Shown: positions 10 to 45,734 of the stretch, piece after piece
Numbering within the stretch: position 1 is the first letter of the stretch
How the letters are laid out: every line of letters starts with the position of its first letter
Source of the DNA: a virus
Taxonomy: Duplodnaviria > Caudoviricetes
Virus record (IMG/VR): IMGVR_UViG_3300017700_000552
Span: 354 to 64,353 of that record
Strand: one strand, 5' to 3'
DNA: 64,000 bases
Translations under genes and position numbers: made by a program
Notes under the pieces: generated by a model
The model's database searches: none
Seen by the model: only the letters and a program-made list of their open reading frames with translations
Told to the model about the DNA's origin: nothing

Positions 10-759
10 TCACTCGTATTCGTAACCGCCGCGGGGAGCTTCCGGATCGGGCGCCATCGAGACGTCCAACTGGCGAACGCCGGTGCCGCGCACCGCGCGC
101 GGATCGGCCGCAAAACCGCCGCCACCGACTTCCTTCTGGACCGCCAAGCCGAGCTGTTCACGCTGGTTCGTCACCTGCCGGCGAGCCATCTGGCGCTCTT
201 CCGCCTGCGCTTCCATGGTCAACTGCAGCGGACGCTCCTCGAGCCGGAGGCCGTCGCGAACGATATCGCCTTCCGTGCCCACCGGCGCGAATCGGCCCGG
301 ATAGCGGCTCATCGGCACCGGACGCCAGCCGTTTTCCCACATGGCGCGCTGGCGATCGGCCTCGACCGCGCCGAACGTCTGGAAGGCGTTCCACTGGTAC
401 GACCAACCCGCCGGCACATCGGCCGTCGAAATCTCGAAAGGATCAGTGCTCGACTTGCGGGAGCGCGTCAGCACCTCGCCGTCGCGGCCACGAACCTCGC
501 CGCCGGCGCGCGGCATCGCCCGGTTGCTCTCCCGGACGGGCTGGCGCACCTGCGCGCGCGGATCGGGCCGATTGCGGCGCACCGGCGCGACTTCCACCGC
601 ATCTTCGTCATCACCGCCCTCGTCAATGTCGATCGGCTGCCCGCGGGACGCTTCCTGCGCGGCGGCAGCGGCAATAGCCGCCTTCTCCGCATTCGACTTC
701 GGACCACGCTTGCGCGGCGCTGCTTGGGTATTCATGGATTTTTCTCCGCTCTGCATCAC
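10..759 (-). CDS. Conserved head-module hypothetical protein (follows scaffold)
   Basis: 249-aa ORF coupled to the scaffold gene (ATGA overlap at 756-759); globular core WSYQW...ENGWRPV...GLRLEERP. Confidence 0.65.
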   Translation of the reverse strand: MMQSGEKSMNTQAAPRKRGPKSNAEKAAIAAAAAQEASRGQPIDIDEGGDDEDAVEVAPVRRNRPDPRAQVRQPVRESNRAMPRAGGEVRGRDGEVLTRSRKSSTDPFEISTADVPAGWSYQWNAFQTFGAVEADRQRAMWENGWRPVPMSRYPGRFAPVGTEGDIVRDGLRLEERPLQLTMEAQAEERQMARRQVTNQREQLGLAVQKEVGGGGFAADPRAVRGTGVRQLDVSMAPDPEAPRGGYEYE

Positions 760-1691
760 ATGCTGCCGTTGTTGTCGTATAGGCCGGCCTTCGTCTGCGC
801 CTGCACCCGCCGGGCCATCTCGTTCAGGCCGATCGGCTCGCCCCGCTTGAACTTGCCCTTCGGGTCGTCGTAATTCCAGACCAGCGTGCCATCGCGCGCG
901 GCCTCAGCCTGCTTCTTGGTCAACCGGACCTCGTTGCCGCCACCGTTCGTGCCACCACCCATCGATCCGCTCGCGTTGACCGGAGCCACCGGCGCCGACT
1001 TCGACCGCGGCGCTGGCGCAGCAGCAGCGTCCTTCCGCAGGCCCAACCGGGTTTCGATATGGGCCAGATATTCGTCCGACCCAGGCTCCAAGTTCTCTCC
1101 GATCGCGTGGTTATGCGCGCGGCCAATTTCCGGCATCCGCGTGGTCACGACGTCGCGGTTCGCGCGCAGCCATGCGGCCGACTTCGGGTCCGTCTGCCGG
1201 GCCATGTTCTCGACCATATCGCCGGCATCGGCCACCCGCTGCGGCGGCGGCGCGGCGCGGCGTGCTTCCATGTCCGACTTGGCCTGCGTGTAGGTCCGCT
1301 CGTCCACGGTGGCCTGCGCCAGCCGTTCCTGCGCATCCGCCAGTGCGTCGCCGTCGCCGGCGTCCATCGCCGCCTTGATCGCCTGCCGAGCGGCCAGCTT
1401 GTCGCGCTTGACGCTCTCCAGCCCGCCGTCGATCGTGGCCTGCTGGCTGGCGTCTACTTCGCCCCGAAACCGAAGTGCCTCCGTTCGCGCGGTCGCGGCT
1501 TCAGCCTCAGCGGCTTGCCGGCGGGATTCGGCCGCCGTCCGGGCTTCTCGTTCTGCTGCCGTAGCGGCGTTGGCCTGCTCGATCTGCGCGCGCAGAGCCG
1601 CAACAGGATCATCAGCATCAGCGGCGACAGTCGTTCCAACATCGGCGGGATCCTCATCCTCGACCACGATATTCAGTGCTTCATCTGCCAT
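756..1691 (-). CDS. Putative capsid scaffolding protein
   Basis: Start MADEALNIVVEDED at 1691; acidic N-terminus, long Ala/Glu/Arg coiled coil, low-complexity linker; position downstream of portal. Confidence 0.6.
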   Translation of the reverse strand: MADEALNIVVEDEDPADVGTTVAADADDPVAALRAQIEQANAATAAEREARTAAESRRQAAEAEAATARTEALRFRGEVDASQQATIDGGLESVKRDKLAARQAIKAAMDAGDGDALADAQERLAQATVDERTYTQAKSDMEARRAAPPPQRVADAGDMVENMARQTDPKSAAWLRANRDVVTTRMPEIGRAHNHAIGENLEPGSDEYLAHIETRLGLRKDAAAAPAPRSKSAPVAPVNASGSMGGGTNGGGNEVRLTKKQAEAARDGTLVWNYDDPKGKFKRGEPIGLNEMARRVQAQTKAGLYDNNGSM

Positions 1692-1702
1692 GGGGCCAAT
1701 CC

Positions 1703-2119
1703 TCAATAATAGAGTTCGGGATCGAGAACGCGCATTTTGATGCTGGCGTCCTCGAAGAGAATGCAGGGCGCCTGGTTGATGAAGAGCGACAGGCCGTCCG
1801 ACTTGCGGAACATTACCCAATCGCCAACCGCAACCGACTTGCCGCCGAATTTGATATGCGCGGTGTCCTGAAACGCCAAAGGGCCGACTGCGACCACCAG
1901 CCCGATCGACCCCTGATAGATATCCTCGTCCTTGGACTTGTCGGTGAGGATGATGCCGCCCTTGGTCTTCTCCGGCTGGATATATTGGGCGACCAGCACC
2001 TGACTATGGAACACCTCGTGTTCGCCGTCTGGCAGGCTCAGGGCATCCAAGATTGCCCCCTTCACATCCACCGCCGCCGCAAACTGCGCAACGCGGGCGG
2101 CGTAATTCGATTTGCTCAT
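1703..2119 (-). CDS. groES: Phage-encoded GroES-like co-chaperonin
   Basis: QVLVAQYIQPEKTKGGIIL mobile-loop motif, GLVVAVGP, GDWVMF. Confidence 0.85.
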   Translation of the reverse strand: MSKSNYAARVAQFAAAVDVKGAILDALSLPDGEHEVFHSQVLVAQYIQPEKTKGGIILTDKSKDEDIYQGSIGLVVAVGPLAFQDTAHIKFGGKSVAVGDWVMFRKSDGLSLFINQAPCILFEDASIKMRVLDPELYY

Positions 2120-2298
2120 AGTTCGTCCTTCTCCAACTCTACACACACTGCACGGATGGCTCGGTAGGCTTCAATCTCTCCGCAGAGAGAGTGATATTTG
2201 TCCTGCGGAACGCGCTGTTCCAGCCCCTGACGTGCCGCCTCGATAAGCTCGTCAATCCGCTTATCGAGGCGATCCATGATCGGATGAATGAAGCTCAC
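2116..2298 (-). CDS. Small helical hypothetical protein of the head module
   Basis: 60-aa ORF coupled to both neighbours. Confidence 0.6.
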   Translation of the reverse strand: MSFIHPIMDRLDKRIDELIEAARQGLEQRVPQDKYHSLCGEIEAYRAIRAVCVELEKDEL

Positions 2299-3020
2299 AG
2301 CCGGCCCGACCGGCGATCGCGCTTCTGGATCTTCGTCTTCTCCAAGCGCCCCTCCCCAGACCCGGCGCCGGCGTCGATGTCAACCGCCACCTGCCCCTTG
2401 CTACTGCCCGGACCTTCGAACTTGCCCGGCGTCCGCGGGATGTCGCGATCCAGCGCGTTCAGGCTGCCCATCTTGAGCTTGCCCCCACGGCCGGTGCCGA
2501 CGTTGCCCGGCGCCTGCACGACGCGACCACCCTTCTTGCGGCCAGGCATCGGCATTCCCGGCGGGAGGCCAGCAGGGCCAGCCATCGCACCCGGCGGCAC
2601 GCCTTCAGCGCCCGGCGGCGGCATCGGCATAGGGCGCGGCGGCACAGGCACGGGGACCGGGACGGGCTGGCCAGCAGCCGGCGGCGCGCTGGGGCTGATC
2701 ACGATATTCACGTTGGTTCCCTTGCCGGACTTCACCCGACCGCCGGTGGCGCGCATCGTCTTAGCCACGCCGGCCTTCTCGGCATCAGTCACAGCGCCTG
2801 CCCGGCGCGTGCCCCGTGGGGCCTTGTCGGAGCGCATCTTGGGCTTGCCGGGATCGATACCGCCGACGCCGTTGGACTTGGCCGCCAATTGCTTGCGCAC
2901 CGGCTCCGGCAACTTCGCGTTGGATGATACGGCACCGCCGGTGGCGTATTCCTTAACCATCGACTTGACGCGACCATGTTCAACGGAAGTCTGCCGATGA
3001 CCAGCATACGGATGTGCCAT
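2295..3020 (-). CDS. Basic Pro/Gly/Met-rich protein with three xxxGGxV motifs (putative head-internal protein)
   Basis: Start MAHPYAGH at 3020 directly after the portal stop; YATGGAV, RATGGRV, RKKGGRV. Confidence 0.6.
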   Translation of the reverse strand: MAHPYAGHRQTSVEHGRVKSMVKEYATGGAVSSNAKLPEPVRKQLAAKSNGVGGIDPGKPKMRSDKAPRGTRRAGAVTDAEKAGVAKTMRATGGRVKSGKGTNVNIVISPSAPPAAGQPVPVPVPVPPRPMPMPPPGAEGVPPGAMAGPAGLPPGMPMPGRKKGGRVVQAPGNVGTGRGGKLKMGSLNALDRDIPRTPGKFEGPGSSKGQVAVDIDAGAGSGEGRLEKTKIQKRDRRSGRL

Positions 3021-3021
3021 T

Positions 3022-5274
3022 TTAGCCCCCTTTCGGCTTTTCAGGCCGAGTTGCATTGTGGATGTCCAAAGCTTCGGTGTGACCCGCTTTCCGCTCCTCA
3101 AGGTTCATCTTACGCACATCAAGTCCGACTTTCATGGCCTTTTCAACGTGACTGGCCTGCTGATCGACCTCGTCCCGGCGCGCCGCGGCCATAGCCCGGA
3201 TACCGTCGTTCTGGTGGATGATCTTGGCCGTATCTTCCTGATTCTGGGAAATAGCCAGCCGGCCCATGATTTCCTTCTCTTTCAGCACCTGATCGGCCAC
3301 CGCCGTCTGCGCGCCCGTCTGCGCCTTGATCAAATTGGCATTGGCCGTCTTTGTCTTGGCTTCTGCCTCCATCAGCTTGGCCGGATCAGCCTGCGGTGCC
3401 GAGGCAGCAGGCGGCTTGATCAGACCGTTCGGATTCTGACGCAGGCCATCGCGGATCACGCGCAGCAGCACCTCTTCGGTATCCATCAGCGGCCCAAACT
3501 GCGGCGACGAGGCGAGCTGCACCAGGCCCATCGCGTTGGCGATCCGGTGCATTTGAGACGGGATGTTCGGGTCCGACGCCGGCACCAGATATTCGTTGTC
3601 CAGCGCCATTCGCAGCATGTCTGCGTCCCATTTGGTCGCGCAGCGCTTGTTGAACTTCCAGAAATCGTCCGGGTATTCGCGGAACACCTCTGCCAGCAAC
3701 TGCAGCTCGTCCGCCTGCGCGTTGTGCATACCCTTGTGCGCCGCAGCCTCAACTTTGGTGGCCTGCTCCAGCAGGGCCAGCGTGGTCCCCACCGGCGCGT
3801 CCTGCTTACCCTCGCCAACCGGAAGCTCGGCCATATTGCCCAGCCGCTGCGCCTGCTCGGTCAGCTTGTCGATCATGGTCATCAGTCCGGGCGTCGCGTC
3901 GGAATACGGCAACTTCATCACCGCATCGCCGATCTTCATGCCAGCGGGCAATTCGATGCCGACTCCTTGCCCGGGGCCGACCCGGAATTCGTTGGTCAAC
4001 TGCCGCCCGGCAATCTTCGCGTAAAGAAACCCCGGGAACGACGCGAACATGCCAGCGTCAAGCGCCTCGCGCAGCGCGCTCGTCATGGCCAGCGACGTGT
4101 TGCCGAGAATGCCCAGCAGCCCGGTCCCGTAGAACCCAGGCCCCGGCACGTAGGGATATTTCACGTAGAGCTGCTTGCGCTCGCATTCCTCGTCGTCTTC
4201 CGACCAGTCGCGGCGGATCGCCAGCACCTGCCGGGAGTCCTTGTCGATCGTCACCACGTAGGGAAGCGGGATGCCGGAATCCTTGAACTGCGGCGGCGTG
4301 AATTCCGGCAAGTCCAGCTCGCACTGCGTCTCATACAGGTTGTACGGCTCATCCTCCGGACGGTGATCGACCGGCTGCACGCCCTGCACGATGGCAATCT
4401 CGTTGGTCACGGCGTTCTCAACGCGCCCCGGCGGCGTCAGGTCCACCTCGATATAAGCGCCCAGCCGCATCATGCGTTTCATGACGGACGGGCGCATTGC
4501 GATCTGATGGGTAATCCGCGCGCAGGACCGCAGATCCTTGGTCGCGTCCGAAACGATGAAATCCTTAATCGGCACCGATTCCGACACCGGCCGGCGCCGC
4601 ATCGGGCAGCGGTAAACCTTCTTGATGCCGCAGCCTTTGAACGCCACGTCCCACAACAGCATGTTCGACGTGTCAGGATAATATTCGGAGGCCGTCGTGG
4701 TCAGATAATGGTTCATGTCCCGCTCAAGCGCGGTGGCAAGTTGGTCCCGCGACATCCCCGGCATAGCCGTGGCCAGTGGATCATTCTGCCCAGGCGGCCC
4801 ACTGATCGGACCGTCATCCTTGACCTTGCACGGCCCGGCAGCCGGCAGCATTTCGCCTACAGCATTCGCCCACGCGCGCAGGCACGCCTCGAGCAGCAGC
4901 GGCGACTTGACGGTGGACATGCCCTCCACCGGCGCCGAGGATGATCCGACGTCGCCGGCGGCCTGATCCAGCGTCAGGCCCAGCAGTTTCATCCCGGACG
5001 CGACGTTGTTCAGCCATTCCTGCCGGGATCGATCATCCGCCTCGACCGCTTCGACCACCTCAATGGCGATCCGGCCCAGATCGTATTCGTTAATTTCGGA
5101 CGCCAGATTGGCGTAGAACTCGCCAGGTTCAGCCGCCGTCCCGGCCTGCGGATTGAGCTGCACCACCACCCCACCGTCCGGCAATTCGGTGGAGATCGCC
5201 CCGGTATGCGGATCGACCGTGGTGGCCTCGCCGTCATCCTCGATCACGATCTGATATTCTGGCTCGCCCATCAT
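3022..5274 (-). CDS. Portal protein
   Basis: 750-aa ORF between terL and scaffold/GroES; SPLLLEAC, GCGIKKVY, GFYGTGL motifs; coiled-coil C-terminus. Confidence 0.85.
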   Translation of the reverse strand: MMGEPEYQIVIEDDGEATTVDPHTGAISTELPDGGVVVQLNPQAGTAAEPGEFYANLASEINEYDLGRIAIEVVEAVEADDRSRQEWLNNVASGMKLLGLTLDQAAGDVGSSSAPVEGMSTVKSPLLLEACLRAWANAVGEMLPAAGPCKVKDDGPISGPPGQNDPLATAMPGMSRDQLATALERDMNHYLTTTASEYYPDTSNMLLWDVAFKGCGIKKVYRCPMRRRPVSESVPIKDFIVSDATKDLRSCARITHQIAMRPSVMKRMMRLGAYIEVDLTPPGRVENAVTNEIAIVQGVQPVDHRPEDEPYNLYETQCELDLPEFTPPQFKDSGIPLPYVVTIDKDSRQVLAIRRDWSEDDEECERKQLYVKYPYVPGPGFYGTGLLGILGNTSLAMTSALREALDAGMFASFPGFLYAKIAGRQLTNEFRVGPGQGVGIELPAGMKIGDAVMKLPYSDATPGLMTMIDKLTEQAQRLGNMAELPVGEGKQDAPVGTTLALLEQATKVEAAAHKGMHNAQADELQLLAEVFREYPDDFWKFNKRCATKWDADMLRMALDNEYLVPASDPNIPSQMHRIANAMGLVQLASSPQFGPLMDTEEVLLRVIRDGLRQNPNGLIKPPAASAPQADPAKLMEAEAKTKTANANLIKAQTGAQTAVADQVLKEKEIMGRLAISQNQEDTAKIIHQNDGIRAMAAARRDEVDQQASHVEKAMKVGLDVRKMNLEERKAGHTEALDIHNATRPEKPKGG

Positions 5275-9637: not shown

Positions 9638-12391
9638 TCAGCGCAGGCCATACAGCGGCGCGTTCTTCTTCCGCAGTTGCTTCCGATCCACCTCGTCCGC
9701 CCGCAACTCCTCCGGCCGGTTCGCAAATCCATTGTCGCGCAGCCACTTCAGCGCCAGCGTCGCCGTATCGGTCAGATCGTCATGACGGCCCTTCGGAAAC
9801 ACTTCCATCTCGGAGATCACCTTCTCCGCATACGTCCTATCCGGGGCGAAGATCAGCCCTTGAGAGAACAGCGGCTGCACCGCCAGCGCCCGAGGCACCT
9901 TGTCCCCCTTGATGTTCACCAGGTCCACCGCGAACCCTTCCCGCCCGTGAATCCGCCGCAGCTCCTGCGCCGCCGTGATGCCGCCCGTCTTGTTTTCGAT
10001 GATCACCCGGTTCACCCGCCGCAATCGCGCAGTGTGGGCGATCCACTCGACCACGCCCCATTGGGATTTTATTCGCTCATAGTAAACCCGGTCTCGTTCT
10101 CCGGGTTCCCTTGGCAACAGGCCCTCGCAGCGCTGTAGGTACTCTGGGTTTGGGGTGCCACGGACGTTCTTTTCGTGGACGGCTTGGAGGGGGAGGGAAC
10201 CGTGCATCTGGAGGCGCTTGGCCCAACCGTCTACGAGCATGACCTGAGGCTGTCCGTCGTCAGCGTAGAATACGCCCCATACGGTCATTGCGGTTGGGTC
10301 GTTCATCTCGTTCTCGGTGAAGGCGGTATCGACGGCGCCTAGCAGGAATTCGAATTGAGGGAATTCGGGCGCATCCCATGGCTGCCACCATTCCCGCTTG
10401 AATAGGTTGCCGCCGCGGGGATGCGGGGTTTGCTGGTACTGACCGGGATAGCCGAGGCCGAGGGATTTCTGGAAACCCAACACCTGCTCCGGCGGAAAGC
10501 GCTCCGGCCAGCACAATTCGCCATCGGCACTTTCCGGATCATCCGGGTTATAGCGGGGGTCGATCCAGCCAATATCGGTTTCAACCGGGCTGCCGTCCGG
10601 CAAAACCTGCCGCTTGAAGTCGTATTCCATTGGGATCATCAAATGGCAGTAGCCCAGATCCAGCTCCAGAATTACCCCGGACAAATCCCGATCGTGCAGG
10701 CGCTGCATAATTACGACAATTGCCGATTTGTTATTGTTGACGCGATTGGACATCGACTCTCGAAACCATGTCGTGGCTGCTGTTCTTACAACTTCGGACT
10801 CAATCTCCTTTACGTTGTGTGGATCATCACAGTTTGAGCAAATGATCAATTCACCTTCGCCACAACATAGGTTATGATTTTCCTCCACCGTCAAACAATA
10901 CGTATTGGAGGGAATTTCATGAAGAAACTCGACATGGACAACAACGGAGAGGATTGGCGCGACGTTGTTGGATTTTCTGGCGCTTACCAGGTCTCCCGCG
11001 ACGGCCGAGTGCGGAGTGTTCCGCGCATTGTCACCCGAAACGGCCACCAATTGACGATCCCCGGCAAAATCATGACGCCGCTGCTCAATCAGGGATACCC
11101 ACGTGTCACGATGCGAATCGGCGGGAAAACTGTCTATCGATTTGCTCACCGGATGGTCGCCGAGGCGTTCATTGGCCCGTGTCCCGATGGACAGGAGGTC
11201 CGGCACAAGAACGGGGACCGATCGATCCCCGGCCTCGACAACATCGAATACGGAACGCGCGCGCAGAACATCGCCGACTGCAAAGTTCACGGCAATTTCA
11301 GGAACGGAGCCAGCCACCTCACCGAGGAGATCGTGCGGGAAATTTTCTCTCGCCGCTATGAGCGGGGCGACCTGCTCGCTAAGGAATACCGAGTTAGCCA
11401 AAGCACCATCAGCAATATTCGAAACGGCCACATTTGGAAGCATCTCGGATTGAGAAAATCTGGCGACTTCCGACTCCGGGGCGACGCCCATCCAGCGCGG
11501 CGCGGTAAGCACATTGTCGCCGGGAATTAGTTGCCCAGCCTCTCGATACCCGTCCGGCGTCATGATTTTATGGTCATAGGTGCATTCGAGGACGCCACCA
11601 TCACCCGTCCGCAATCGAACCATCCGCTTACCCGGATTCTTAAACCAGCGAATAGCCGGGCGCAGCTCCATCGCGCCCGTGCGCTCGTTCAACGACCAAA
11701 CACGGGATTCGTCCCGACTTTCAACCATCTGGCCAATCGCGCGCGGCCCGTTTTCCGTCCAGACTTTGGTTTCATACGGGAAGCAAATAACGCGATCGCC
11801 ACGCATACCGGTTGAAATACCGCCCACCGACGTCGCAAATTTCCAGCCGGTGCGGTCATTGACGATATGCTTGGCGCCGTCCTGCTTCATGCCAAAAACC
11901 GTGCCGTACATGGCCTGAAACTTCGGGCTGCGGATAACGTCCATCGTCTTGTTGTTGGCGATCTGCATAAGGCTGGCGCTGTACGAAAACGTCAGGAACC
12001 GATGGTTCGGCATGCCCATCGCCGACCATTCCCACAGTGGCCAGAAAATCGTCGTTAGAAACGTCTTGGAGAATCCGGGCGACACGTTGATCAGCAGCCG
12101 GTTGATTTCCCCAAACGTCACCGCCTCGAGATGTTCGCAAATCGCATAAAGCGGCCAGCCCTCAACCAATTCCGCGCCAGGCTCCAGCACATCCCAGAAA
12201 TACCGAAAGAACGACATCAGGCCGCCCTGCAGCACGCCGTCTTCGTCGTAATACCCACGCTGCGCGTGGATCGCTTGCTGCTCACGGATATCCAATTCCG
12301 AAAGCAGGGCCATCATCGTGGCCAACTCATCCCGATTTACTTGGCTATTCATAGAGATAGCTATAACAGACGATCCTGCCGACGTCACCAA
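9638..12391 (-). CDS. terL: Terminase large subunit containing an intein
   Basis: Walker A-like VSPGFSKT; Walker B GDRVI|CDDPH split by an insertion; IMQRLH motif; nuclease VDTAFT and HDDLTD. True start may be 12352. Confidence 0.92.
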   Translation of the reverse strand: MVTSAGSSVIAISMNSQVNRDELATMMALLSELDIREQQAIHAQRGYYDEDGVLQGGLMSFFRYFWDVLEPGAELVEGWPLYAICEHLEAVTFGEINRLLINVSPGFSKTFLTTIFWPLWEWSAMGMPNHRFLTFSYSASLMQIANNKTMDVIRSPKFQAMYGTVFGMKQDGAKHIVNDRTGWKFATSVGGISTGMRGDRVICFPYETKVWTENGPRAIGQMVESRDESRVWSLNERTGAMELRPAIRWFKNPGKRMVRLRTGDGGVLECTYDHKIMTPDGYREAGQLIPGDNVLTAPRWMGVAPESEVARFSQSEMLPNVAVSNIADGALANSVFLSEQVAPLIAARENFPHDLLGEVAGSVPEIAVNFAVGDVLRARSVFDVVEAGDRSVPVLVPDLLSIGTRANERLGDHPVSKSIDSFPADSHRDTWVSLIEQRRHDFAGDRQLVAVSGDNARNTPHSAVAGDLVSARKSNNVAPILSVVVHVEFLHEIPSNTYCLTVEENHNLCCGEGELIICSNCDDPHNVKEIESEVVRTAATTWFRESMSNRVNNNKSAIVVIMQRLHDRDLSGVILELDLGYCHLMIPMEYDFKRQVLPDGSPVETDIGWIDPRYNPDDPESADGELCWPERFPPEQVLGFQKSLGLGYPGQYQQTPHPRGGNLFKREWWQPWDAPEFPQFEFLLGAVDTAFTENEMNDPTAMTVWGVFYADDGQPQVMLVDGWAKRLQMHGSLPLQAVHEKNVRGTPNPEYLQRCEGLLPREPGERDRVYYERIKSQWGVVEWIAHTARLRRVNRVIIENKTGGITAAQELRRIHGREGFAVDLVNIKGDKVPRALAVQPLFSQGLIFAPDRTYAEKVISEMEVFPKGRHDDLTDTATLALKWLRDNGFANRPEELRADEVDRKQLRKKNAPLYGLR
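10850..10911 (+). promoter_or_regulatory. Candidate sigma70 promoter plus RBS of the antisense HNH gene
   Basis: TTCACC (10850-10855), N17, TATGAT (10873-10878); SD GGAGG at 10907-10911. Confidence 0.45.
10919..11530 (+). CDS. NUMOD4-HNH homing endonuclease, antisense inside the TerL intein
   Basis: EDWRDVVGFSGAYQVSRDGRVRS (NUMOD4); FAHRMVAEAFIG...VRHKNGD...DNIEYGTRAQN (HNH); C-terminal HTH-like LTEEIVREI...VSQSTISNI; GGAGG SD at 10907-10911, 7 nt before ATG 10919. Confidence 0.9.
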   Translation: MKKLDMDNNGEDWRDVVGFSGAYQVSRDGRVRSVPRIVTRNGHQLTIPGKIMTPLLNQGYPRVTMRIGGKTVYRFAHRMVAEAFIGPCPDGQEVRHKNGDRSIPGLDNIEYGTRAQNIADCKVHGNFRNGASHLTEEIVREIFSRRYERGDLLAKEYRVSQSTISNIRNGHIWKHLGLRKSGDFRLRGDAHPARRGKHIVAGN

Positions 12392-19134: not shown

Positions 19135-20460
19135 TCATTCTGCTGCCTCCAGCTTCGGCGCGGCGAGTTCACTGACGATCTGGATACGGGTGCCGAGCCA
19201 GCGCATCGCGTTGACGGCCATACTGTTGCCGAGCGCCTTGTAGCGAGGGCCGTCAGGTGCACCGTTCTTCCCGCGCCACGGCACGTTGGTGAAGCTGTCA
19301 GGGAATCCCTGAAGTCGCTCGCACTCCGTCGGGGTCAGGCGCCGTACGGCCCAATTGGTTGACACGTAGGTCTGTTGCTTCATGCCAGGTTCCGCGGCGA
19401 TAGCCCCCGCGACTTCCATCAACCGAACTTCATCTCGTTGGTTCTGGGCAAACGCGATGGCCGGCATTACTCCAGCGTTCGCGTGCGAACTGGCAAAGCC
19501 GCCAGCGCGCGGCGTCGGCGAAATGTTGTCACTGGCGTCGCCTCCGGAATCCTTGCACGAGAATGCAATCGCTGGCGGGTGCGCGCCCGCCGCTAGTGGG
19601 TGGCAGGGATCGCCAGCTTTAGGGACGCTACGGTTCGCCTTACTGGTGATCTGGGTTGTGTCAAAAGCGACAAATGTTTCGCTCTCAAAATCCAGTCTTC
19701 CTGCCGGGCCGCCGTGGGCATTGCAGGCGGTCGCGACATCGATGGGGCCAGCGGTATTATTGCCGCCGAATGGGATCGCAACGACAGGATCTTGTCCGCG
19801 CGTATCTCCGGCACGCTCTACGCCTCGGCCACTGCTGACAATGCTAGGTGCAATGTCGGCGGTAAATCCTTGCCCCGCTTTGCGGCGCGGCGCAGAATTC
19901 CCTGACAAGCTTTCGCGCTCAAAAAGTACTGCCGCGGCACGTCGCCAGTCTCGAGAATTTCCGACAACGAACACACGCCGTCGTCGCTGAGGGACAGCCC
20001 GTCCAAACCCGTCCACTCGCACGTACTGAGCGTCAAGCACTCGGTAGGCGAACCCATACCCGAGTTCGACCATGCCCCCGAGGATGGCTCCAAAATCCCT
20101 TCCACCGTTCGACGACAGGACTCCGGGGACGTTCTCCCAAAGCAGCCACTCGGGGCGATACCGATCAGCGATGGCAAGATAGGTGAGCGCGAGGTTGCCC
20201 CGCGGGTCAGCCATTCCTTTGCGAAGTCCAGCGACCGAGAAGGACTGGCAGGGGGTGCCTCCAACGAGAACATCGACATCTGCATCAGGCCATTCCTTGA
20301 ACTTGGTCATGTCGCCGAAATTCGGCACGTTGGGGTAATGGTGCGCCAGGACGGCGGCCGGGAACTTCTCGATCTCGGCAAAGCCGACAGGCTGCCAGCC
20401 CAGAGGGTGCCATGCGGCAGTCGCGGCCTCGATGCCGGAGCAGACGGACAGGTATTTCAT
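19135..20460 (-). CDS. dcm: DNA cytosine-C5 methyltransferase (large/alpha polypeptide)
   Basis: Start MKYLSVCSGIEA (motif I), GGTPCQ (IV), ENVPG (VI), QRRRRVF (VIII), RRLTPTECERLQGFP...YKALGNS (X). Confidence 0.93.
   Translation of the reverse strand: MKYLSVCSGIEAATAAWHPLGWQPVGFAEIEKFPAAVLAHHYPNVPNFGDMTKFKEWPDADVDVLVGGTPCQSFSVAGLRKGMADPRGNLALTYLAIADRYRPEWLLWENVPGVLSSNGGRDFGAILGGMVELGYGFAYRVLDAQYVRVDGFGRAVPQRRRRVFVVGNSRDWRRAAAVLFERESLSGNSAPRRKAGQGFTADIAPSIVSSGRGVERAGDTRGQDPVVAIPFGGNNTAGPIDVATACNAHGGPAGRLDFESETFVAFDTTQITSKANRSVPKAGDPCHPLAAGAHPPAIAFSCKDSGGDASDNISPTPRAGGFASSHANAGVMPAIAFAQNQRDEVRLMEVAGAIAAEPGMKQQTYVSTNWAVRRLTPTECERLQGFPDSFTNVPWRGKNGAPDGPRYKALGNSMAVNAMRWLGTRIQIVSELAAPKLEAAE
19818..20285 (-). 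CDS. Nested alternative-frame ORF resembling the M.EcoHK31I beta polypeptide
   Basis: Same strand, +1 frame inside dcm; SSGAWSNSGM and CSLSEILETGDVPRQYFLSAKACQGILRRA (motif IX-like). Confidence 0.7.
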   Translation of the reverse strand: MQMSMFSLEAPPASPSRSLDFAKEWLTRGATSRSPILPSLIGIAPSGCFGRTSPESCRRTVEGILEPSSGAWSNSGMGSPTECLTLSTCEWTGLDGLSLSDDGVCSLSEILETGDVPRQYFLSAKACQGILRRAAKRGKDLPPTLHLALSAVAEA

Positions 20461-20551
20461 CGACTGGCCTTCCACGCGGCGAATTCCAGCCAAAACATGA
20501 GGGCGGGCGCGTAAAGCAGCACGGCGAGGAAGATGAACTTGAAGAATGCCA

Positions 20552-20770
20552 TCATGCCGCACCTCCGCGCTCTGCAGCAACACCAACCGCAGCCTCCTGC
20601 AAGATGCCTTTCACCCGCCGCTCGTGGTCAGGGTCCATCCTGCCGACATGGAAAAGCTGGACCAACTGCGACAGCACGGTCAGCCGCCGTCCCTTCGCTG
20701 TATTGGCTCCGGCCTTGTCTCGGGCTTTGTGGAGATCGGCAATCATGATGTGGCTCCCGACACTTTGCAC
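20552..20770 (-). CDS. Hypothetical protein
   Basis: 72-aa ORF; a 32-aa hydrophobic ORF (MMAFFKFIFLAVLL...) follows it into the dcm start. Confidence 0.45.
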   Translation of the reverse strand: MQSVGSHIMIADLHKARDKAGANTAKGRRLTVLSQLVQLFHVGRMDPDHERRVKGILQEAAVGVAAERGGAA

Positions 20771-23454: not shown

Positions 23455-24867
23455 TTAAAATGTGAACTCAGGCAGATTTTCCGCAGGCACATAGCCGCGC
23501 GTCCATCCCTCGTCGCGCACAGCGTTACAAGGAACGTCAACGAACACCTTCACGCCGCCGGTGGATCCCTCGCGGCTTTTCTCGATCAGAATGTCCAGCG
23601 TGTTCAGGCATCTCGCCATCTGATCCTGCCAGATAGCGTATTCCGGCGAATCCGGTTTCGGCTCGCGGTTCTGGAGGTAGTACGATTCGCGATAGACCAT
23701 CATCACCATCGCAGCGTCTTCCTCAATGTTCCCGGACGCGCGAAGGTCCGACAAATTCGGGCGCTTGTCATCACGAGATTCGACACCGCGGTTGAGCTGC
23801 GCCAGCGCGATCACGCCAATGTCCATTTCGCGCGACAGCCGCATCAGGCCGCTCGACACCTCGCCGACCTCGTTGACCTTGTTCCCGCGATACCGATCCG
23901 ACGCCGCCACAAGCCCCATGTGGTCAACCATGATGAAGTCCAGACCGCCGCGCTGTTTCATCTGGCGCGCTCGCGAAGCGATCTGGGATAGCGTAAGACC
24001 CGTCTGCTGCTCGATCCGCAAAGGCAGTTCCTCCAGCGTCTGCCCGGCCCGGCGCATGGCTTCAAATTCGTCTTCCTTGAACCGCCCCGACCGCATCTTG
24101 AAATACGGGATTTCCCGCTCATCAAAAACCGCATCCGATATCAGGCGCCGCGACAGCGACACGTCGCCCATCTCGAGGCTGAAATAAATCCCCCGATGGC
24201 CGCCTTGGCACAGCGCCCGAGCCATATTCAGCGCAAGGCCCGACTTCATCATGCCCGGCCGCCCGGCCAAGATCGTCAACTCGCCACGCTGTAAGCCCGA
24301 CGTCTTCCGATCCAAATCCCGCAGGCCATAACTCATCCCCGAGATGGCGCCGTCGCGCTCATATGCCGATGCCGCCGCGTCGATCGCACGCATCACCGAA
24401 TCGCCTAGCGTCAGAGACGGCATCTGCTGCGTATTGCGGGACGCCACGATGCCGTCCAGTTGTTCGATGCCCCACGCCGCAATCTCTGCCGGATCAGCGT
24501 CCCCAGGCCGCGCAAGCTCGTTGCACACGTCCAAGATCAACCGCTTGTCCGATAGGTCGCGGACCATCCCGGCGAGGTGCGGCGCTTCCGAAGCCGTGGC
24601 GCCAGCCGCCATCAGCCGCGCCACGTACTGCGATAGCGTAACATCCTGCACGAGTTGCACATCAGCCGGCAGCAGCGGCTTGATCGTCAGGGCATTTGCC
24701 AGCTTGCCGGCGGATATCAGCTTCTCGCAGATATCAAATATTTGCGCGTGAATAGGCTCTGCGAAGTGTTCTTCCGTGACCTTTTTTGCGATTAGCGGCA
24801 GCAGATCGTTGCGGAGCAGCAGTGCGCCGATCAACGCCTGTTCAACTTGTACTGTGCCGTCGCTCAC
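23455..24867 (-). CDS. dnaB: Replicative DNA helicase
   Basis: LAGRPGMMKS (Walker A), FSLEM, MVDHMGL, LAQLNRGVESRDDKRPNLSDLRASGNIEEDA. Confidence 0.95.
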   Translation of the reverse strand: MSDGTVQVEQALIGALLLRNDLLPLIAKKVTEEHFAEPIHAQIFDICEKLISAGKLANALTIKPLLPADVQLVQDVTLSQYVARLMAAGATASEAPHLAGMVRDLSDKRLILDVCNELARPGDADPAEIAAWGIEQLDGIVASRNTQQMPSLTLGDSVMRAIDAAASAYERDGAISGMSYGLRDLDRKTSGLQRGELTILAGRPGMMKSGLALNMARALCQGGHRGIYFSLEMGDVSLSRRLISDAVFDEREIPYFKMRSGRFKEDEFEAMRRAGQTLEELPLRIEQQTGLTLSQIASRARQMKQRGGLDFIMVDHMGLVAASDRYRGNKVNEVGEVSSGLMRLSREMDIGVIALAQLNRGVESRDDKRPNLSDLRASGNIEEDAAMVMMVYRESYYLQNREPKPDSPEYAIWQDQMARCLNTLDILIEKSREGSTGGVKVFVDVPCNAVRDEGWTRGYVPAENLPEFTF

Positions 24868-40464: not shown

Positions 40465-40671
40465 ATGATCGAAGCCGTCATTCGTGCCCTAATCGCCATT
40501 TGCGTCGTCGCTCTGGCCGTATTCCTCATCATTTGGGTGCTCGGTGCACTCGGACTGGCGCTGCCGGCGATGGTCGTGAAGATCCTCTACATCATCGCCG
40601 CGTTGATCGCCGTGCTGATCCTCTGGCGCATCCTCTCGCCAGTGATCGGCGGCGGCCAGATCGTCCCCTAA
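40465..40671 (+). CDS. Small two-TM membrane protein, opposite strand
   Basis: 68 aa, almost entirely hydrophobic; GGAG SD. Confidence 0.65.
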   Translation: MIEAVIRALIAICVVALAVFLIIWVLGALGLALPAMVVKILYIIAALIAVLILWRILSPVIGGGQIVP

Positions 40672-43600
40672 AGCCCGTAATGGCTCAGCACCGCGCGCGT
40701 GCCGGATTGAGGCGAGACCCGCCCGCCGGCCGCGCGCTTTGCTTTGTGCAGACCCAAAACATGCTCGATTGATGCGGCATCCGCCTTCGGGAAAGCAGCC
40801 TTCAGCGCATCCGCCGTCACCGCCCCACCGCTCTCGACAACATCCAGCGCGTGTTCGCTCATCTTGTCCCGCAGCGCACTCACTTTGGCTGGATCGGTCC
40901 ATTTGGTGCCGTACTGCTGGCGCACCAAATCCTCGATCGCCTTGAATTCGTCTTCCGACCTCAACCCCTCATAGCGCGTCCGGTTCATCTGCAGCGCTCG
41001 CTCCGCATCAGCCTGCTTGCCGCGAACGCCATTCCAGATGCCCATAGCTTCAACCTCCGGCGTCGCCGCCGCAGCTCGCTTCTGCTGAAGCGCCAGAATA
41101 GCGTCGCGCGCGTCAGGGATGGAATCTCCTGCGGCTCGCTTAATTGGTCCCGACCCCAACGCAACACCGCCGCCGGTTCCGCCGACCCCTCCGGTCATCG
41201 CGGTCATCGCAGCCTCGACCGGCACGGACGGATCATAGTTTCCGGTATCCAGCGCATACTGTGAATTCTCGATCGCGCGCTTGGGCAGCGTCGCAGTCGA
41301 GTTGATCACCGCGCCAAAGAGCTTGTCGAGAAAGGACGGCTGACGTCCAGCATCCTCCGCAGGCGAATAGGTGCCAAATGCGCCGCCGCTGTCGATTCCC
41401 TCGTCCGACACCCGCCCGCCGCTCGCACGCCGCACCTGCCGATCCTTCCGGCGCTCGTCGGATTGCGTCGGCACCGACGCCAGTTCGCGCCGGATCGACT
41501 TGGACAGGGCAAACAGCGGCCCCACGTTCGGCCGCTCCGGCTGCACCTGCGCCAGGTAATAGCGCGCGCGCTCCGGATTGAGCAACGCATCCCGGAACGC
41601 ATCCTCAGCCCGCTTGATGCCTGCCGCGCGCATCGTTCCCACGATGTACGACGCGCCCTTGATGCCCATGCCGGTCATGATGCCGGTCATGGTGCCGCTA
41701 TGCGCCCCGGCAATGACGCCGGCAGTGATCGCCGACATCAGCGATGCGTGCTTCTTGGCATCCGCGGCGATCTTTCCGACAATCGGCCCCATGTCCTTGG
41801 CCGTGCCTGGGCTGCCGACCACACGCGTCGCGCTCAGCCGGCTCGCGCGCATGTAATCGTCGTTGATTCGCTTCATCATCGCGACCTGTTCCGGCGGATA
41901 CAGCCGGGACAGCGACGCCTCGTTGTTGCGGACGAAGTTGTTGAAGACGCCGCCCTTCATCTGTTGCGTCCCGGACGTGCCTGCTTCCTGCACAGCGGTC
42001 ATGGCGCGCACCATGTAATCCACGCCGGCCTTGCGCAGACCTTCCAGCGATTCCTTGTCGGCGCGCTTCACCAGATCGGCAATCTGCGTCGGGCCATGCT
42101 TGGCCTTCAACATCGTGCCAATGGCGTTCTCGACCTCGACCGGATCAGTTTTGCCAATCAGCTTCGCTGCCGCGCTCTTCTGGAATTCGGCCATGTTCTG
42201 CTTGGCGATCGCACCGGCCTCCGTCAGCAGATCGGACGCCTTGGCCGCGCTATCGAACCGCTTGGAAAAGCCCGGCGACACCTCATCAAACGCCCGCAGC
42301 ACGTTGCCGTAGTCGCGCTTCCACGCCGCCAGATTGCTTTCGCTGATCGTGCCGTTGCCCAGTTTCTTGCGCAGCGGATCAACGACGTGATCGAGCATCG
42401 CCGCCACCGCGTTCGGATCGTTCTTGGCTGCCTTCAGGAATGCCTTGGCCGTCTCATAGCCCTTGTCACCCTTGAGCACCGCGCGCGACGGCACGGCGCT
42501 GTTCGGCACGTCGTAACTGCCGTTGAACCCCTTCAGCGTCGGCGCCACCGGCTTGTCCTTGAACGTCCGGGCATATTCGCCGTAGTTCGACTTCGCCGCC
42601 TTCAGCCGACCAGCCGCCGCCTCGTCAAAGTTCGGCTGCAGCCCGCGGCGCACCTCGCGCGGCCCGGAATCGAACGTCGGCGCGTCCGAAACCGGCATAC
42701 CGGCTTCGTCAGGCTCGCGCCCCACCCGCTCCATCGTCGTCTTGAGAATGTCGGTCGCCTTCACGTCGTCACCGAACAGCCGCGGCCCGGCCAAGTTCTT
42801 CTCTGCCTCCGCCGCATAGGCTTTCAGCGCATCGCCAACCCGCTTCCGCGACGCCAGCAGTCCCTTTTCCACATCCCGGAACAGCAGACTTTCGATCAGC
42901 GGCGCGATGTCCGACTGGAACATATCGTTCTGGCGCAGGATTTCGCCGATCGGGCGCCCCTCGTCGCGCGCGCGCATGATCTTTTTCACCGCGGCCATCA
43001 GCTCGTGTGTGACGTCGTGCGAGGCGTCGATCAACCCGTCATGCGCGGCCTCGCGCATCCGCGCCCACGGCCCGGCCGCGTCGGTCAGCGCCGAAGCGAG
43101 CTGCTTGATGTTGCTGTCCGTCGAATCGAACGCCTTGCCAATGAACCCGGCATCGTCAAACGCGCGCGACGCCAGCGCCGCCGACAGCCGCCGCTCGCCG
43201 GCCTGAGACAGGTTACCGTCCTTGTCCAGAATGCCGCCACGCTCGCCGGCCGGCAACTTATCTACGAACTCACGCACGAACGGACGGTTTTCCGCCGCCG
43301 TCACCGGCATGTCGCCGATCTTGGCCACCGTATCGCGGGAGATCAGCTTGGCATCGGCCGACGCCTGCTCAGCGGCGTTCATCCGCAGCGATCCCGACGA
43401 ATTCGCCGAGTGCGCAAAGTATTCCCGCTGCTGCGGCGACATCTCGGAAACCCGCCGCGCGACGAGAACCGGCTGCTTCATGCCGGCCGTGTCAAAACCC
43501 TGCTGCTCGAGCCAGTTGCGATATTCCGTGCCGCCCTTCTGGTAATGCTGACCAATCGCCAGCGCGCGGCCATTGCCGCTCTCAACCACGCCGTCCGGCC

Positions 43601-45734
43601 CGACAATCGGCGCCCCAGAATTAGCCTCCGGCGACGGCCCCAATCGCTCCGGCTGGATCCGCGCCGCCATGCCGTTGACCTGATCGCGCGCCGGTGCGCT
43701 CTCCCGCGCGCGCGGCTGCAACTGCTGCGGATATTCCGGCCGCAGTTTGAAATTGGCATCGTGCGACGTAACCAGATCGCCGTGCTCCATGACCTGATAT
43801 TTGGCGCGCAGATTGCCGCCGGGATAATAGATTGGGAAGTCGTTCAGGTCCGGCGCGGCCGCAGCCTTCGGCGCCAGTTCGCGCAACTGCTGCGCTTCGT
43901 ATTTGTCGGCGACCGCATCGCCATACTGCTTGCGGAGCTGTTCGACCTCTTTACGCCGCTCTACAGGGAGCCGAGCCGCCGGGATTCCTTCTGGTACTCG
44001 CGCAGCGCCCGCAGCATCTCCAGATCGCCCTCCACCAGCGCCCGGTGCTGCACCATCTCCAAAAAGCCCGGCCGTGCCGGTGGCGCGGTTTTCTCCAGCA
44101 GCGCCTTCAGCGTCCCGAGGCCGTCCAAGCTGGCCATTGTATTCGTCATGCAACTGCTCCAGCCGCGCACTCACCGTGTCGGCAGGCTTCTTCTTGCCCG
44201 CGCCGACCGCCGCTTGGTCATAGGCGACCTGATTATCTACGGCCTCATTTATGGCTTTTTGGATGCCGGATTTCATCTGCGACAGCCGCCCCCAAACCGG
44301 GGTTTCGCCGGCGGACAGCCGCTCCTGCTTCATAGCCGCGGTCACGTACTGATCGAAATCCATCATCGACTTGAACGGCACCACATCCGGCATCGATCGC
44401 GCGCGGTCATAGATCGCCTTTTCAACGTCCGACACCGGCGCCGCATAGTCGCCGACGCTCTTGCGAATCGTGTCCGCCGTCTCGCGGATCGGCGTCGCCA
44501 CCAGATTGACCGAACCGTCAGGATCCACCGCGTCATACAGCCGACGATTGGCCTGCTTAGCCTCAGCCTTCACCGCCTCCATTGCCGACCGAATGGCGGC
44601 GCCGCGCGCCTCTGGGGTTTCTCCCGGCCCGAGCGCCCGCGATGCCAGTTCCTGCGCGCCCTGCTCCATCCGAGCCAGCGCCGATTCCGCGCCCTGCTCG
44701 ATCTGCGCGCGCTGCGTCTCAAACAACCGGCCCGGCTTCATCACGTCGGCATCCGGCGCCAGACCGGCCAGGGCTTCCTGCCGGGCGATCGCGCCCTGAT
44801 CGCGCTGCTCGTTGAACGGCGTGCCGTCTTCCGTCACCGCACGGCGCTGCGCCTCGAGAATGCCGCGATCCCCGGTCAGTTCGCCCGTCGTCGGCTGTGA
44901 TCCCGGGATAATCTCGTCACCGCCCGGCTGGCGTGGACCGGGGAATAGCGCCTGCTCCATCGCGGCAGGATCATTCGCCTCAGCCCGCAGCCGCGCGCCT
45001 ACGGCCTCCTCACGGCCCGCCTGCGTGAAACCACGTAGTTTCGCCGCGGTAGAGTTGCGCGCCGCCTCGACCAACCCCGGGCCAACCATGCCGGCCGCCG
45101 CGCCAAGCAGCGGATCGCCGGTCACATCCGTCACCGCCGACGACGAAGCCCCACCGACCGCATTCAGCGGCGCCAGCGCAGCCGAGGCGCGCGCAGCACC
45201 CGCGCCCGTCGCGCCACGCACCACACCGCCACCACCGGCCCCCAAACCACCCACCGCCGCCTGCACGGCGCCCTGCAGCGCCCGGCCAGGACCGCTCTCC
45301 GGCTGATATTCTCCGGTCACGCCCAACACCGGCTTGGCCACAGCCTCACTTGTCGGCAGAACTTGAGATGGATCAATCGCCTCGCGCACGCGCCCAAGCA
45401 CCGAGTCATCCGCCTGCGCCTTGCGCTTGGCAGCCATGCCGGCCATCACGTCTTCCATCGGCTTGCCAGTGATTTTGGCTTCCGCGCGCGCCAACACGTA
45501 ATCGGCAAAGCCGCCCATGTCCGGCGCCCACGTCAATGGCGACGCCGCCGACAGGCCCTTAACCACGCCGGTGGCCGCGCCCTTGGCCGCACCCATCAAC
45601 CAGCCATCACCATCGTTCGACAGCGGCCCGGCACGTTCCACCTTCGGATCGACCGGCACCGCGCCCCACGCAGCGGGGCCATCGTCCTTCGTTTCAACCG
45701 GGACAGCACCCCACTCCGCAGGATTATTGCTCAT
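40668..45734 (-). CDS. Large ejection/internal virion protein with a DdrB-like ParB domain
   Basis: 1688 aa, Ala-rich; N-terminal EWGAVPV repeats; DLVTSHD...YPQQLQPR.R...GAPIVGPDGVVESGNGR at about 43400-43815. Confidence 0.75.
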   Translation of the reverse strand: MSNNPAEWGAVPVETKDDGPAAWGAVPVDPKVERAGPLSNDGDGWLMGAAKGAATGVVKGLSAASPLTWAPDMGGFADYVLARAEAKITGKPMEDVMAGMAAKRKAQADDSVLGRVREAIDPSQVLPTSEAVAKPVLGVTGEYQPESGPGRALQGAVQAAVGGLGAGGGGVVRGATGAGAARASAALAPLNAVGGASSSAVTDVTGDPLLGAAAGMVGPGLVEAARNSTAAKLRGFTQAGREEAVGARLRAEANDPAAMEQALFPGPRQPGGDEIIPGSQPTTGELTGDRGILEAQRRAVTEDGTPFNEQRDQGAIARQEALAGLAPDADVMKPGRLFETQRAQIEQGAESALARMEQGAQELASRALGPGETPEARGAAIRSAMEAVKAEAKQANRRLYDAVDPDGSVNLVATPIRETADTIRKSVGDYAAPVSDVEKAIYDRARSMPDVVPFKSMMDFDQYVTAAMKQERLSAGETPVWGRLSQMKSGIQKAINEAVDNQVAYDQAAVGAGKKKPADTVSARLEQLHDEYNGQLGRPRDAEGAAGENRATGTAGLFGDGAAPGAGGGRSGDAAGAARVPEGIPAARLPVERRKEVEQLRKQYGDAVADKYEAQQLRELAPKAAAAPDLNDFPIYYPGGNLRAKYQVMEHGDLVTSHDANFKLRPEYPQQLQPRARESAPARDQVNGMAARIQPERLGPSPEANSGAPIVGPDGVVESGNGRALAIGQHYQKGGTEYRNWLEQQGFDTAGMKQPVLVARRVSEMSPQQREYFAHSANSSGSLRMNAAEQASADAKLISRDTVAKIGDMPVTAAENRPFVREFVDKLPAGERGGILDKDGNLSQAGERRLSAALASRAFDDAGFIGKAFDSTDSNIKQLASALTDAAGPWARMREAAHDGLIDASHDVTHELMAAVKKIMRARDEGRPIGEILRQNDMFQSDIAPLIESLLFRDVEKGLLASRKRVGDALKAYAAEAEKNLAGPRLFGDDVKATDILKTTMERVGREPDEAGMPVSDAPTFDSGPREVRRGLQPNFDEAAAGRLKAAKSNYGEYARTFKDKPVAPTLKGFNGSYDVPNSAVPSRAVLKGDKGYETAKAFLKAAKNDPNAVAAMLDHVVDPLRKKLGNGTISESNLAAWKRDYGNVLRAFDEVSPGFSKRFDSAAKASDLLTEAGAIAKQNMAEFQKSAAAKLIGKTDPVEVENAIGTMLKAKHGPTQIADLVKRADKESLEGLRKAGVDYMVRAMTAVQEAGTSGTQQMKGGVFNNFVRNNEASLSRLYPPEQVAMMKRINDDYMRASRLSATRVVGSPGTAKDMGPIVGKIAADAKKHASLMSAITAGVIAGAHSGTMTGIMTGMGIKGASYIVGTMRAAGIKRAEDAFRDALLNPERARYYLAQVQPERPNVGPLFALSKSIRRELASVPTQSDERRKDRQVRRASGGRVSDEGIDSGGAFGTYSPAEDAGRQPSFLDKLFGAVINSTATLPKRAIENSQYALDTGNYDPSVPVEAAMTAMTGGVGGTGGGVALGSGPIKRAAGDSIPDARDAILALQQKRAAAATPEVEAMGIWNGVRGKQADAERALQMNRTRYEGLRSEDEFKAIEDLVRQQYGTKWTDPAKVSALRDKMSEHALDVVESGGAVTADALKAAFPKADAASIEHVLGLHKAKRAAGGRVSPQSGTRAVLSHYGL

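Follow-up and report, generated by a model that had tools for sequence, protein, structure and literature searches.

A terL intein of an uncultured phage with a putative NUMOD4-HNH homing endonuclease encoded on the opposite strand

Where does the homing function of an intein reside when the region between its splicing halves encodes no recognisable endonuclease? This question is raised by the gene of the large terminase subunit (terL) of a phage (Duplodnaviria; Caudoviricetes) represented by the IMG/VR record IMGVR_UViG_3300017700_000552. Its 64,353-bp genome is complete, with direct terminal repeats and a CheckV value of 100%, and is covered almost entirely by the 64,000-nucleotide stretch of DNA analysed here (positions 354 to 64,353 of the record; hereafter, the window, whose own numbering is used throughout). 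The answer that we consider very probable is that the locus constitutes a composite selfish element written on two strands, made up of a HINT intein inserted in the Walker-B-like motif of terL and of a NUMOD4-HNH homing gene lying on the other strand of this same DNA.

The terL intein and the gene on its opposite strand

The features of the locus, from the termini of terL to the gene nested within its intein, are the following:

9638 to 12391, minus strand: terL, precursor of the large terminase subunit, one open frame of 917 codons counted from TTG 12391 (phrog_38, E 2e-64)
11786 to 12391, minus strand: N-extein, TerL residues 1-202, whose end, ...GMRGDRVI, makes up one half (the first) of the Walker-B-like hhhhDD motif
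10832 to 11785, minus strand: intein of 318 residues (TerL 203-520), Cys1...ECTYDH...TYCLTVEENHNL...IICSN, followed by Cys+1, with an Intein_splicing match and a HINT fold
11489 to 11785, minus strand: N-terminal HINT half, intein residues 1-99, with a predicted local distance difference test score (pLDDT) of 72-95; its last 14 codons overlap the C-terminal tail of the HNH gene
10964 to 11488, minus strand: in-frame filler made up of intein residues 100-274, an antisense shadow of the HNH gene that is predicted to be unfolded and presumably removed by splicing
10832 to 10963, minus strand: C-terminal HINT half, intein residues 275-318, with blocks F and G (pLDDT 64-95); its antisense holds the start codon, the ribosome-binding site and a promoter-like site of the HNH gene
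9638 to 10831, minus strand: C-extein, starting with CDDPHNVK... and containing the remaining ATPase and the RNaseH-like nuclease domain (Terminase_6C, E 2e-4)
10919 to 11530, plus strand: putative antisense homing-endonuclease gene of 203 amino acids, I-HmuI-like, with NUMOD4, HNH_3 and C-terminal helices and with residues H96, N108 and N117

A preliminary description of this DNA had proposed that terL is a single open frame interrupted at residues 203-520 by a Cys...Ser-Asn/Cys+1 intein that splits Walker B. Both statements are borne out: the minus-strand frame is open over its 917 codons, blocks A, B and F/G are all present, and the HINT fold is recovered by modelling. The junctions (marked here by slashes) read GDRVI/C...SN/CDDPH, block B (TxxH) corresponds to ECTYDH, and blocks F and G to TYCLTV..NHN. 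Residues C1, T69, H72 and N318 of the intein are invariant among ten sequences. About 96 close homologues without the intein run uninterrupted across the site, with the consensus GDR[VI][VI]-[LIVF]-DDPH, and position +1, occupied by L, I, V or F in these intein-less alleles, is Cys in all 16 intein-bearing ones. As for the beginning of the gene, the start is probably ATG 12352 (904 amino acids) rather than TTG 12391, because the alignments of homologues begin at Met14; a database gene call (P0003) begins at a still later Met and gives 892 amino acids.

In an AlphaFold model of the intein, built with the ten-sequence alignment, the two HINT halves match by Foldseek the Mtu RecA, Npu DnaB and Ssp DnaE mini-inteins (E 1e-7 to 1e-5). 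The possibility that the filler between them is a real protein domain was considered and rejected: a Pfam scan of the in-frame middle of the intein returned no domain, its pLDDT is 22-37 (all values below 50), its identity among relatives is 27%, and it is the first codon position that varies the most. This agrees with the earlier statement that the middle carries no endonuclease motif. A split intein or a fractured gene was likewise discarded, as terL is a single 917-codon open reading frame (ORF) and is continuous in every relative checked. Since the genome is complete and terL is its sole large-terminase gene, splicing is required, and both sequence and model support an intein that would be spliced with about 175-190 amino acids of antisense-derived filler between its splicing halves.

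The plus-strand gene lies between block B and block F, the place taken by the in-frame endonuclease domain in canonical inteins, and is in the same codon register as terL; the intein Leu codon CTA of GQLIPGD, read on the opposite strand, is its stop codon TAG (11528-11530), exactly as had been noted beforehand. The 203-residue product matches NUMOD4 (E 2e-12; 47.4 bits against a Pfam cut-off of 23.4), HNH_3 (E 1e-10; 41.2 bits against 24.8) and phrog_59 (E 6e-44), and NUMOD4 and HNH_3 also exceed the Pfam cut-offs in the antisense ORFs of relatives. The helix-turn-helix initially assigned to its C-terminus has a different standing: the Pfam scan of the HNH protein gave no helix-turn-helix match, and the assignment is based on four helices predicted at residues 136-175 (pLDDT 63-81) and on the fold match with I-HmuI. 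This enzyme (1U3E), the only solved relative, is matched by sequence with E 1.5e-6 and by predicted fold with E 4.5e-7 over 178 columns, albeit with a high root-mean-square deviation. The model reaches a pLDDT of 82-94 over the NUMOD4 and HNH parts. H96, N108 and N117 correspond to residues of the I-HmuI motif and, together with D120, are invariant in nine sequences, including those of the distant loci L005 and L025. The identity of the antisense protein to free-standing phage HNH endonucleases is 35-41%.

Some relatives display variations of this gene. In L030 (2269-3009, minus strand) and L032 the antisense HNH protein is about 46 amino acids longer, with a second C-terminal helix-turn-helix-like repeat, which in L030 shows a faint Sigma70_r4 match; the corresponding inteins have 356-357 residues, and the terL frame is open across the extra DNA too. 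L002 bears in addition a free-standing HNH_3 gene of 189 amino acids (398-967, plus strand), located about 2 kb upstream of its intein-bearing terL.

Conservation of both frames and the strand under selection

Two long frames facing each other may be open by chance, and the relatives of the terL intein were therefore the basis for evaluating this case. A protein search yielded 13 intein-bearing TerL homologues with the intein middle aligned, of which the DNA was read for nine, and a pattern scan added four more distant loci from another TerL family, one of them from a Bacillota metagenome-assembled genome. In this distant group the junction is ...GFGG/C...N/CIIIDDPH, three residues upstream, and the identities are 26-45% for the HINT parts and 31-37% for the HNH protein; in the ten close loci, intein identity is 30-41% and the G+C content of the gene 43-60%. 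In 14 of 14 loci a continuous terL faces an intact NUMOD4/HNH_3 ORF on the opposite strand and in the same register. Among these ten close loci the HNH start codon, which is ATG in nine and GTG in L002, always occupies the same alignment position.

In this register, a stop in one frame corresponds to TTA, CTA or TCA in the other, and not one of these codons is present in any of the ten close HNH genes. For the window alone this has little weight, given that a run of 203 codons free of antisense stops has a probability of 0.18-0.29 under the codon usage of the exteins themselves, a high value explained by the rarity of TTA, CTA and TCA in a gene of 57% G+C. Significance therefore rests on the relatives. 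In three loci whose genes are rich in these codons, L028 and L031 (gene G+C 43% and 46%) and L030 (54%), the probability is 2e-4 to 1e-3 each. Over the ten close loci the joint probability is about 1e-16, a figure weakened by its treating the lineages as independent at synonymous sites, which is reasonable because HNH third positions differ at 65% of sites.

The comparison of the two strands places the constraint on the HNH frame. When the same stretch of about 200 codons is read in the HNH frame, the mean amino-acid identity between pairs is 55%, against 27% when it is read in the terL frame, and the nucleotide differences at the first, second and third HNH codon positions are 0.39, 0.30 and 0.65. 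Along the intein, the sense position that varies the most changes as follows:

N-terminal HINT half (intein residues 1-85): third position, 0.68
Middle (intein residues 100-274): first position, 0.65, with 0.37 at the third
C-terminal HINT half (intein residues 290-318): third position, 0.58

The excess of third-position changes in the N-terminal HINT half indicates selection on the sense frame there, and the flip of this pattern between the HINT halves and the filler means that the constraint switches strand inside the intein. The HNH frame is thus under purifying selection, while the terL frame across it is constrained only to remain free of stops. This demand costs the HNH gene nothing, because in this register the antisense of each stop is one of the synonymous Leu or Ser codons TTA, CTA and TCA. 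Chance open frames, plausible for the window alone, are ruled out by the relatives together with the flip in codon-position variability. A misassembly or another artefact is equally discarded: the same layout appears in 14 assemblies from JGI, ENA, Logan, NCBI and IMG/VR, and neither a misassembly nor an in-frame stop, either of which would have undermined the original proposal, was seen among them.

The family extends beyond these loci. When 1.84 billion cluster representatives were searched with a profile built from the ten inteins, 139 matches at E <= 1e-30 were obtained, and a profile of the filler only matched 103 of 142 newly returned proteins, amounting to about 100 clusters at 50% identity. 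These filler-profile matches, which are at the protein level (an intact HNH gene is shown at the DNA level for the 14 loci only), are nearly all of TerL size and have junctions of the types N/CDDPH, N/C[VLYI]DDPH or N/C[ILV][IV]IDD. Among GenBank phage records none shows this form of intein, and only the N-terminal HINT half finds matches, for example in Gordonia phage Clown; this is probably the reason for the absence of the form from surveys of cultured phages.

Other arrangements were observed at or near the same site. The terL of L035 (1001-3844) contains a different intein at the same Walker-B site, ending in ...THN/CDDPN with the canonical penultimate His, and a 321-residue ORF on the same strand but in another frame (1701-2666, plus strand) with a zinc-type HNH motif (PF01844, E 1.5e-4, above the cut-off). 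L035 would accordingly represent an out-of-frame, same-strand HNH nuclease in an intein, and P0019 looks to be of the same type. P0025, a TerL relative of 1544 amino acids, has three inteins: one in the P-loop, after PPGFAK, with an in-frame LAGLIDADG domain (PF14528), one at the Walker-B site, of the type with an antisense-HNH shadow, and a third at a C-terminal DDL/C...HN/CDS motif.

Proposed mechanism, mobility and competing explanations

In the mechanism that we propose, terL would be translated straight through the antisense of the HNH gene, and in the resulting precursor the two HINT halves would be connected by a disordered linker of about 175 residues. Splicing in cis would then restore ...GDRVI-CDDPH... 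and yield an active terminase in which Cys replaces the usual aliphatic residue. The HNH protein would be produced separately, by transcription from the promoter-like site and translation from the Shine-Dalgarno sequence and ATG contained in the antisense of blocks F and G, and during mixed infections it would nick or cut an intein-less terL near the insertion site. Repair would subsequently copy the intein, the nuclease gene and the Cys+1 codon into the intein-less allele. As to the origin of the element, most likely a free-standing phage HNH gene invaded a mini-intein; only those insertions leaving terL open could have survived, and the sole demand of the HNH gene on terL would be a filler that does not disturb the folding of the HINT halves.

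Two candidate expression signals precede the nuclease gene:

10850 to 10878, plus strand: sigma-70-like promoter candidate, TTCACC-17-TATGAT, with 9 of 12 consensus matches
10907 to 10912, plus strand: Shine-Dalgarno sequence GGAGGG, 6 nt before ATG 10919

Read on the other strand, the Shine-Dalgarno sequence and the ATG give exactly the intein codons CAT-GAA-ATT-CCC-TCC (H-E-I-P-S). A strong GGAG-type sequence is found in five of the ten close relatives, and a weaker purine run in the rest. The -10-like TATGAT likewise faces the block G codons AAT-CAT-A (N-H-N), of which it is the reverse complement, AAT being a minority Asn codon (24%) and CAT accounting for 46% of the His codons in this genome; about seven of ten relatives show an arrangement of the type TTGnnn-17/18-TATGAT or TAGAAT. 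The Leu that follows NHN uses the rare codon CTA, which provides an in-frame TAG closing the HNH frame upstream. Hairpins resembling terminators are no more frequent in the region than expected by chance. It is conceivable, but rather doubtful, that the antisense gene is wired into the intein, that is, that its start codon, ribosome-binding site and -10/-35 elements in the antisense of blocks F and G and the splicing motifs constrain each other. If this were so, transcription convergent with terL could time the nuclease before late packaging, or throttle terL; one DNA stretch would hold three layers of information, and the family would represent a natural intermediate on the way from free-standing nuclease genes to in-frame nuclease domains of inteins (via inversion).

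Regarding mobility, the preliminary description had suggested looking for intein-less and mini-intein TerL alleles at this site, and both exist. In a FastTree phylogeny of 113 extein sequences, from which the intein columns were removed, the 14 intein-bearing alleles imply nine gains or losses, at least six of them forced by well-supported branches. The intein-bearing P0006 and the intein-less P0064 have exteins that are 91% (N) and 86% (C) identical, and at the site they differ by the exact intein and the change from Phe to Cys at +1. Recent homing and precise loss are both compatible with the scattered distribution. At the same insertion site, P0021 (707 amino acids) and P0028 (710 amino acids) have mini-intein alleles; the latter keeps the N- and C-terminal HINT halves of this intein family joined by just a short linker, and may either preserve the ancestral state, prior to the HNH invasion, or derive from a deletion.

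Several points weigh against a functional two-strand element. Transcription, translation, splicing and cleavage are all inferred for a phage that is an uncultured metagenomic genome. The Pfam Intein_splicing match (E 6e-7) is below the gathering score, the penultimate residue of block G, expected to be His, is Ser in this intein and Ser, Ala or Lys in its relatives, and block F has a Cys where most inteins have Asp. Because of these last two substitutions, the splicing chemistry may be atypical. Functional inteins without a penultimate His exist, so its absence lowers the certainty about the chemistry, not about the fold. The Cys of block F (TYCLTV) led us to weigh a class 3 intein; the Trp and Thr that would complete the class 3 triplet are absent from their positions, and Cys1 does not vary. 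Concerning expression, one promoter-like site was found where 0.6 are expected, which is not significant alone, and the site is only suggestive because the intein conserves those residues anyway; convergence with the late, essential terL could furthermore limit HNH expression. Finally, the tree alone does not separate homing from precise loss, and homing must also convert the +1 codon, which specifies L, I, V or F in intein-less alleles.

An unlikely alternative is that the intein is a safe harbour for an independent HNH nuclease, whose target would lie elsewhere or which would serve phage competition or marker exclusion, with no homing of the intein. The closest relatives of the HNH protein are indeed free-standing phage HNH genes, and L002 has such an HNH_3 gene near terL. 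Moreover, enzymes of the I-HmuI type are nickases able to exclude competitors and to act also on the intron-containing DNA that encodes them. An independent tenant of this kind is hard to reconcile with the joint divergence of intein and HNH (the distant group being distant in both), with the recurrence of the pair in two TerL families at neighbouring Walker-B positions, and with intein-plus and intein-minus alleles that differ by the whole unit. In addition, no intein of the family was seen to have filler without HNH, both being present in 14 of 14.

It is very unlikely that the locus is a decaying relic, in which a recently inverted or inserted endonuclease has ceased to be expressed, chance accounts for the two open frames in this GC-rich phage and the intein is now passed on only vertically. 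The probability calculated for the window alone would allow it, as would the frequent occurrence in these genomes of long antisense ORFs that are accidental (one in L002 has 575 amino acids). Against decay, the HNH gene is intact in 14 of 14 lineages that are close to saturation at synonymous sites (0.65 differences at position 3), its catalytic residues are invariant, its substitution pattern is clearly that of a coding sequence and its start codon is conserved. Both frames are also open in the three loci rich in TTA, CTA and TCA (two of them AT-rich), at the small chance given above for each. The last explanation, extremely improbable, is that of a packaging helper, a terminase-associated HNH protein such as some cos phages require to cut their genome, kept in terL for co-regulation instead of homing, which the position of the gene within terL and the known terminase-adjacent phage HNH proteins assisting cos cleavage (PMC3592412) could suggest, but these helpers are small zinc-HNH proteins without NUMOD4, the build of NUMOD4, HNH_3 and C-terminal helices is that of intron-encoded and free-standing homing enzymes, the genome has direct terminal repeats, and most close TerL relatives lack both intein and HNH, which is therefore not needed for packaging in the family. 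The two-strand composite element is thus the reading retained here.

The rest of the genome has a podovirus-type look. Genes for a DNA methyltransferase, a DnaB-like helicase and virion or ejection proteins of 1688 and 1150 amino acids are present in the window, as well as a portal gene (3022-5274); 19135-20586, 23455-24867 and 40668-49183 are the minus-strand regions listed for the rest of the genome. Relatives have SU10-type portals and a GcrA homologue, which hint at alphaproteobacterial hosts.

Relation to known inteins and nucleases

Three known systems share part of this architecture. In fractured genes, according to the summary of Dassa et al. 2009 given in bioRxiv 10.1101/2025.01.02.630785, split inteins have a free-standing endonuclease gene between their halves; as in terL, an intein there interrupts a phage gene, and a nuclease that is expressed independently lies between the halves. 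That account describes two ORFs spliced in trans, whereas the terL ORF is continuous in 14 of 14 loci and must splice in cis. The cyanobacterial dnaX intein has an out-of-frame LAGLIDADG nuclease, in a "+2 ORF", with frame-specific selection, namely a low ratio of nonsynonymous to synonymous substitution rates in the nuclease frame and a raised one in the intein frame (bioRxiv 10.64898/2026.09.14.751524). It resembles the terL intein in its disordered in-frame middle, in the folded nuclease of the overlapping frame with its own Shine-Dalgarno sequence, in its sporadic distribution and in the proposed secondary invasion of a mini-intein, and differs in that a LAGLIDADG nuclease in a +2 ORF of a cellular gene is replaced here by an HNH nuclease on the opposite strand of a phage terminase gene. 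The dnaX nuclease frame is termed "anti-sense strand" in bioRxiv 10.1101/2025.01.02.630785 and "+2 ORF" in bioRxiv 10.64898/2026.09.14.751524, both from the same laboratory. I-HmuI (PDB 1U3E), a nicking HNH homing endonuclease encoded in a group I intron of the DNA polymerase gene of Bacillus phage SPO1, has the same domain build and the same catalytic His/Asn/Asn as the terL HNH protein. It belongs to an intron that splices as RNA and is encoded on the sense strand, in contrast to the protein-splicing intein and the antisense strand of terL.

These comparisons have consequences for annotation, evolution and use. The nested antisense HNH gene is annotated in none of the ten contigs fetched, which reveals an annotation gap: gene callers never call it, and such inteins are consequently filed as decaying or as having a middle domain without a known identity. 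The family supports the view of intein evolution in which splicing comes first and the nuclease invades later. The endonuclease insertion site of the HINT fold would tolerate about 175 unselected residues inside an essential enzyme, a property useful for intein engineering, and the HNH enzymes, whose target would predictably be the Walker-B region of terL, are candidates for site-specific nickases.

The closest precedent is that of the antisense intein nucleases. In bioRxiv 10.1101/2025.01.02.630785, antisense LAGLIDADG nucleases in inteins, those of Synechocystis DnaX and of a Chloroflexus SpoVR-like protein, are credited to Gorbalenya 1998 and Gogarten 2002. The same work reports antisense LAGLIDADG nucleases in actinophage minor-capsid inteins and antisense VSR-like ones in actinophage inteins, terminase included, and finds unfolded in-frame middles and evidence of ongoing invasion, with HNH nucleases in frame only. 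The preliminary description had presented the two-strand composite as something not known to have been described. Its structural part holds, as attested by the two open frames in 14 of 14 loci, the selection on the HNH frame and the unfolded filler; its novelty does not, antisense LAGLIDADG and VSR-like intein nucleases having been published (bioRxiv 10.1101/2025.01.02.630785), and novelty is all that is lost thereby, as that description had itself foreseen. A full-text literature search for antisense HNH nucleases in inteins gave only the 2025 preprint just cited and an unrelated review, and thus no report of such a case, and the nuclease type and the size of the family are apparently undescribed so far. 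The published and the present systems are alike in the continuous host ORF, the foldless middle, the nuclease ORF on the opposite strand and the presence of terminases among the hosts, and in both a free-standing nuclease is proposed to have invaded the intein, with evidence of continued invasion (bioRxiv 10.1101/2025.01.02.630785). They are unlike in the phages that harbour them, actinophages there and here uncultured phages probably of Proteobacteria and Bacillota, and in that the terL family is large and has the start codon, ribosome-binding site and promoter-like site of its nuclease inside blocks F and G. Above all, the terL nuclease is I-HmuI-like, of the NUMOD4/HNH_3 type, and therefore falls outside the described antisense subtypes, LAGLIDADG and VSR-like, so that HNH joins the nuclease families able to serve an intein from the opposite strand.

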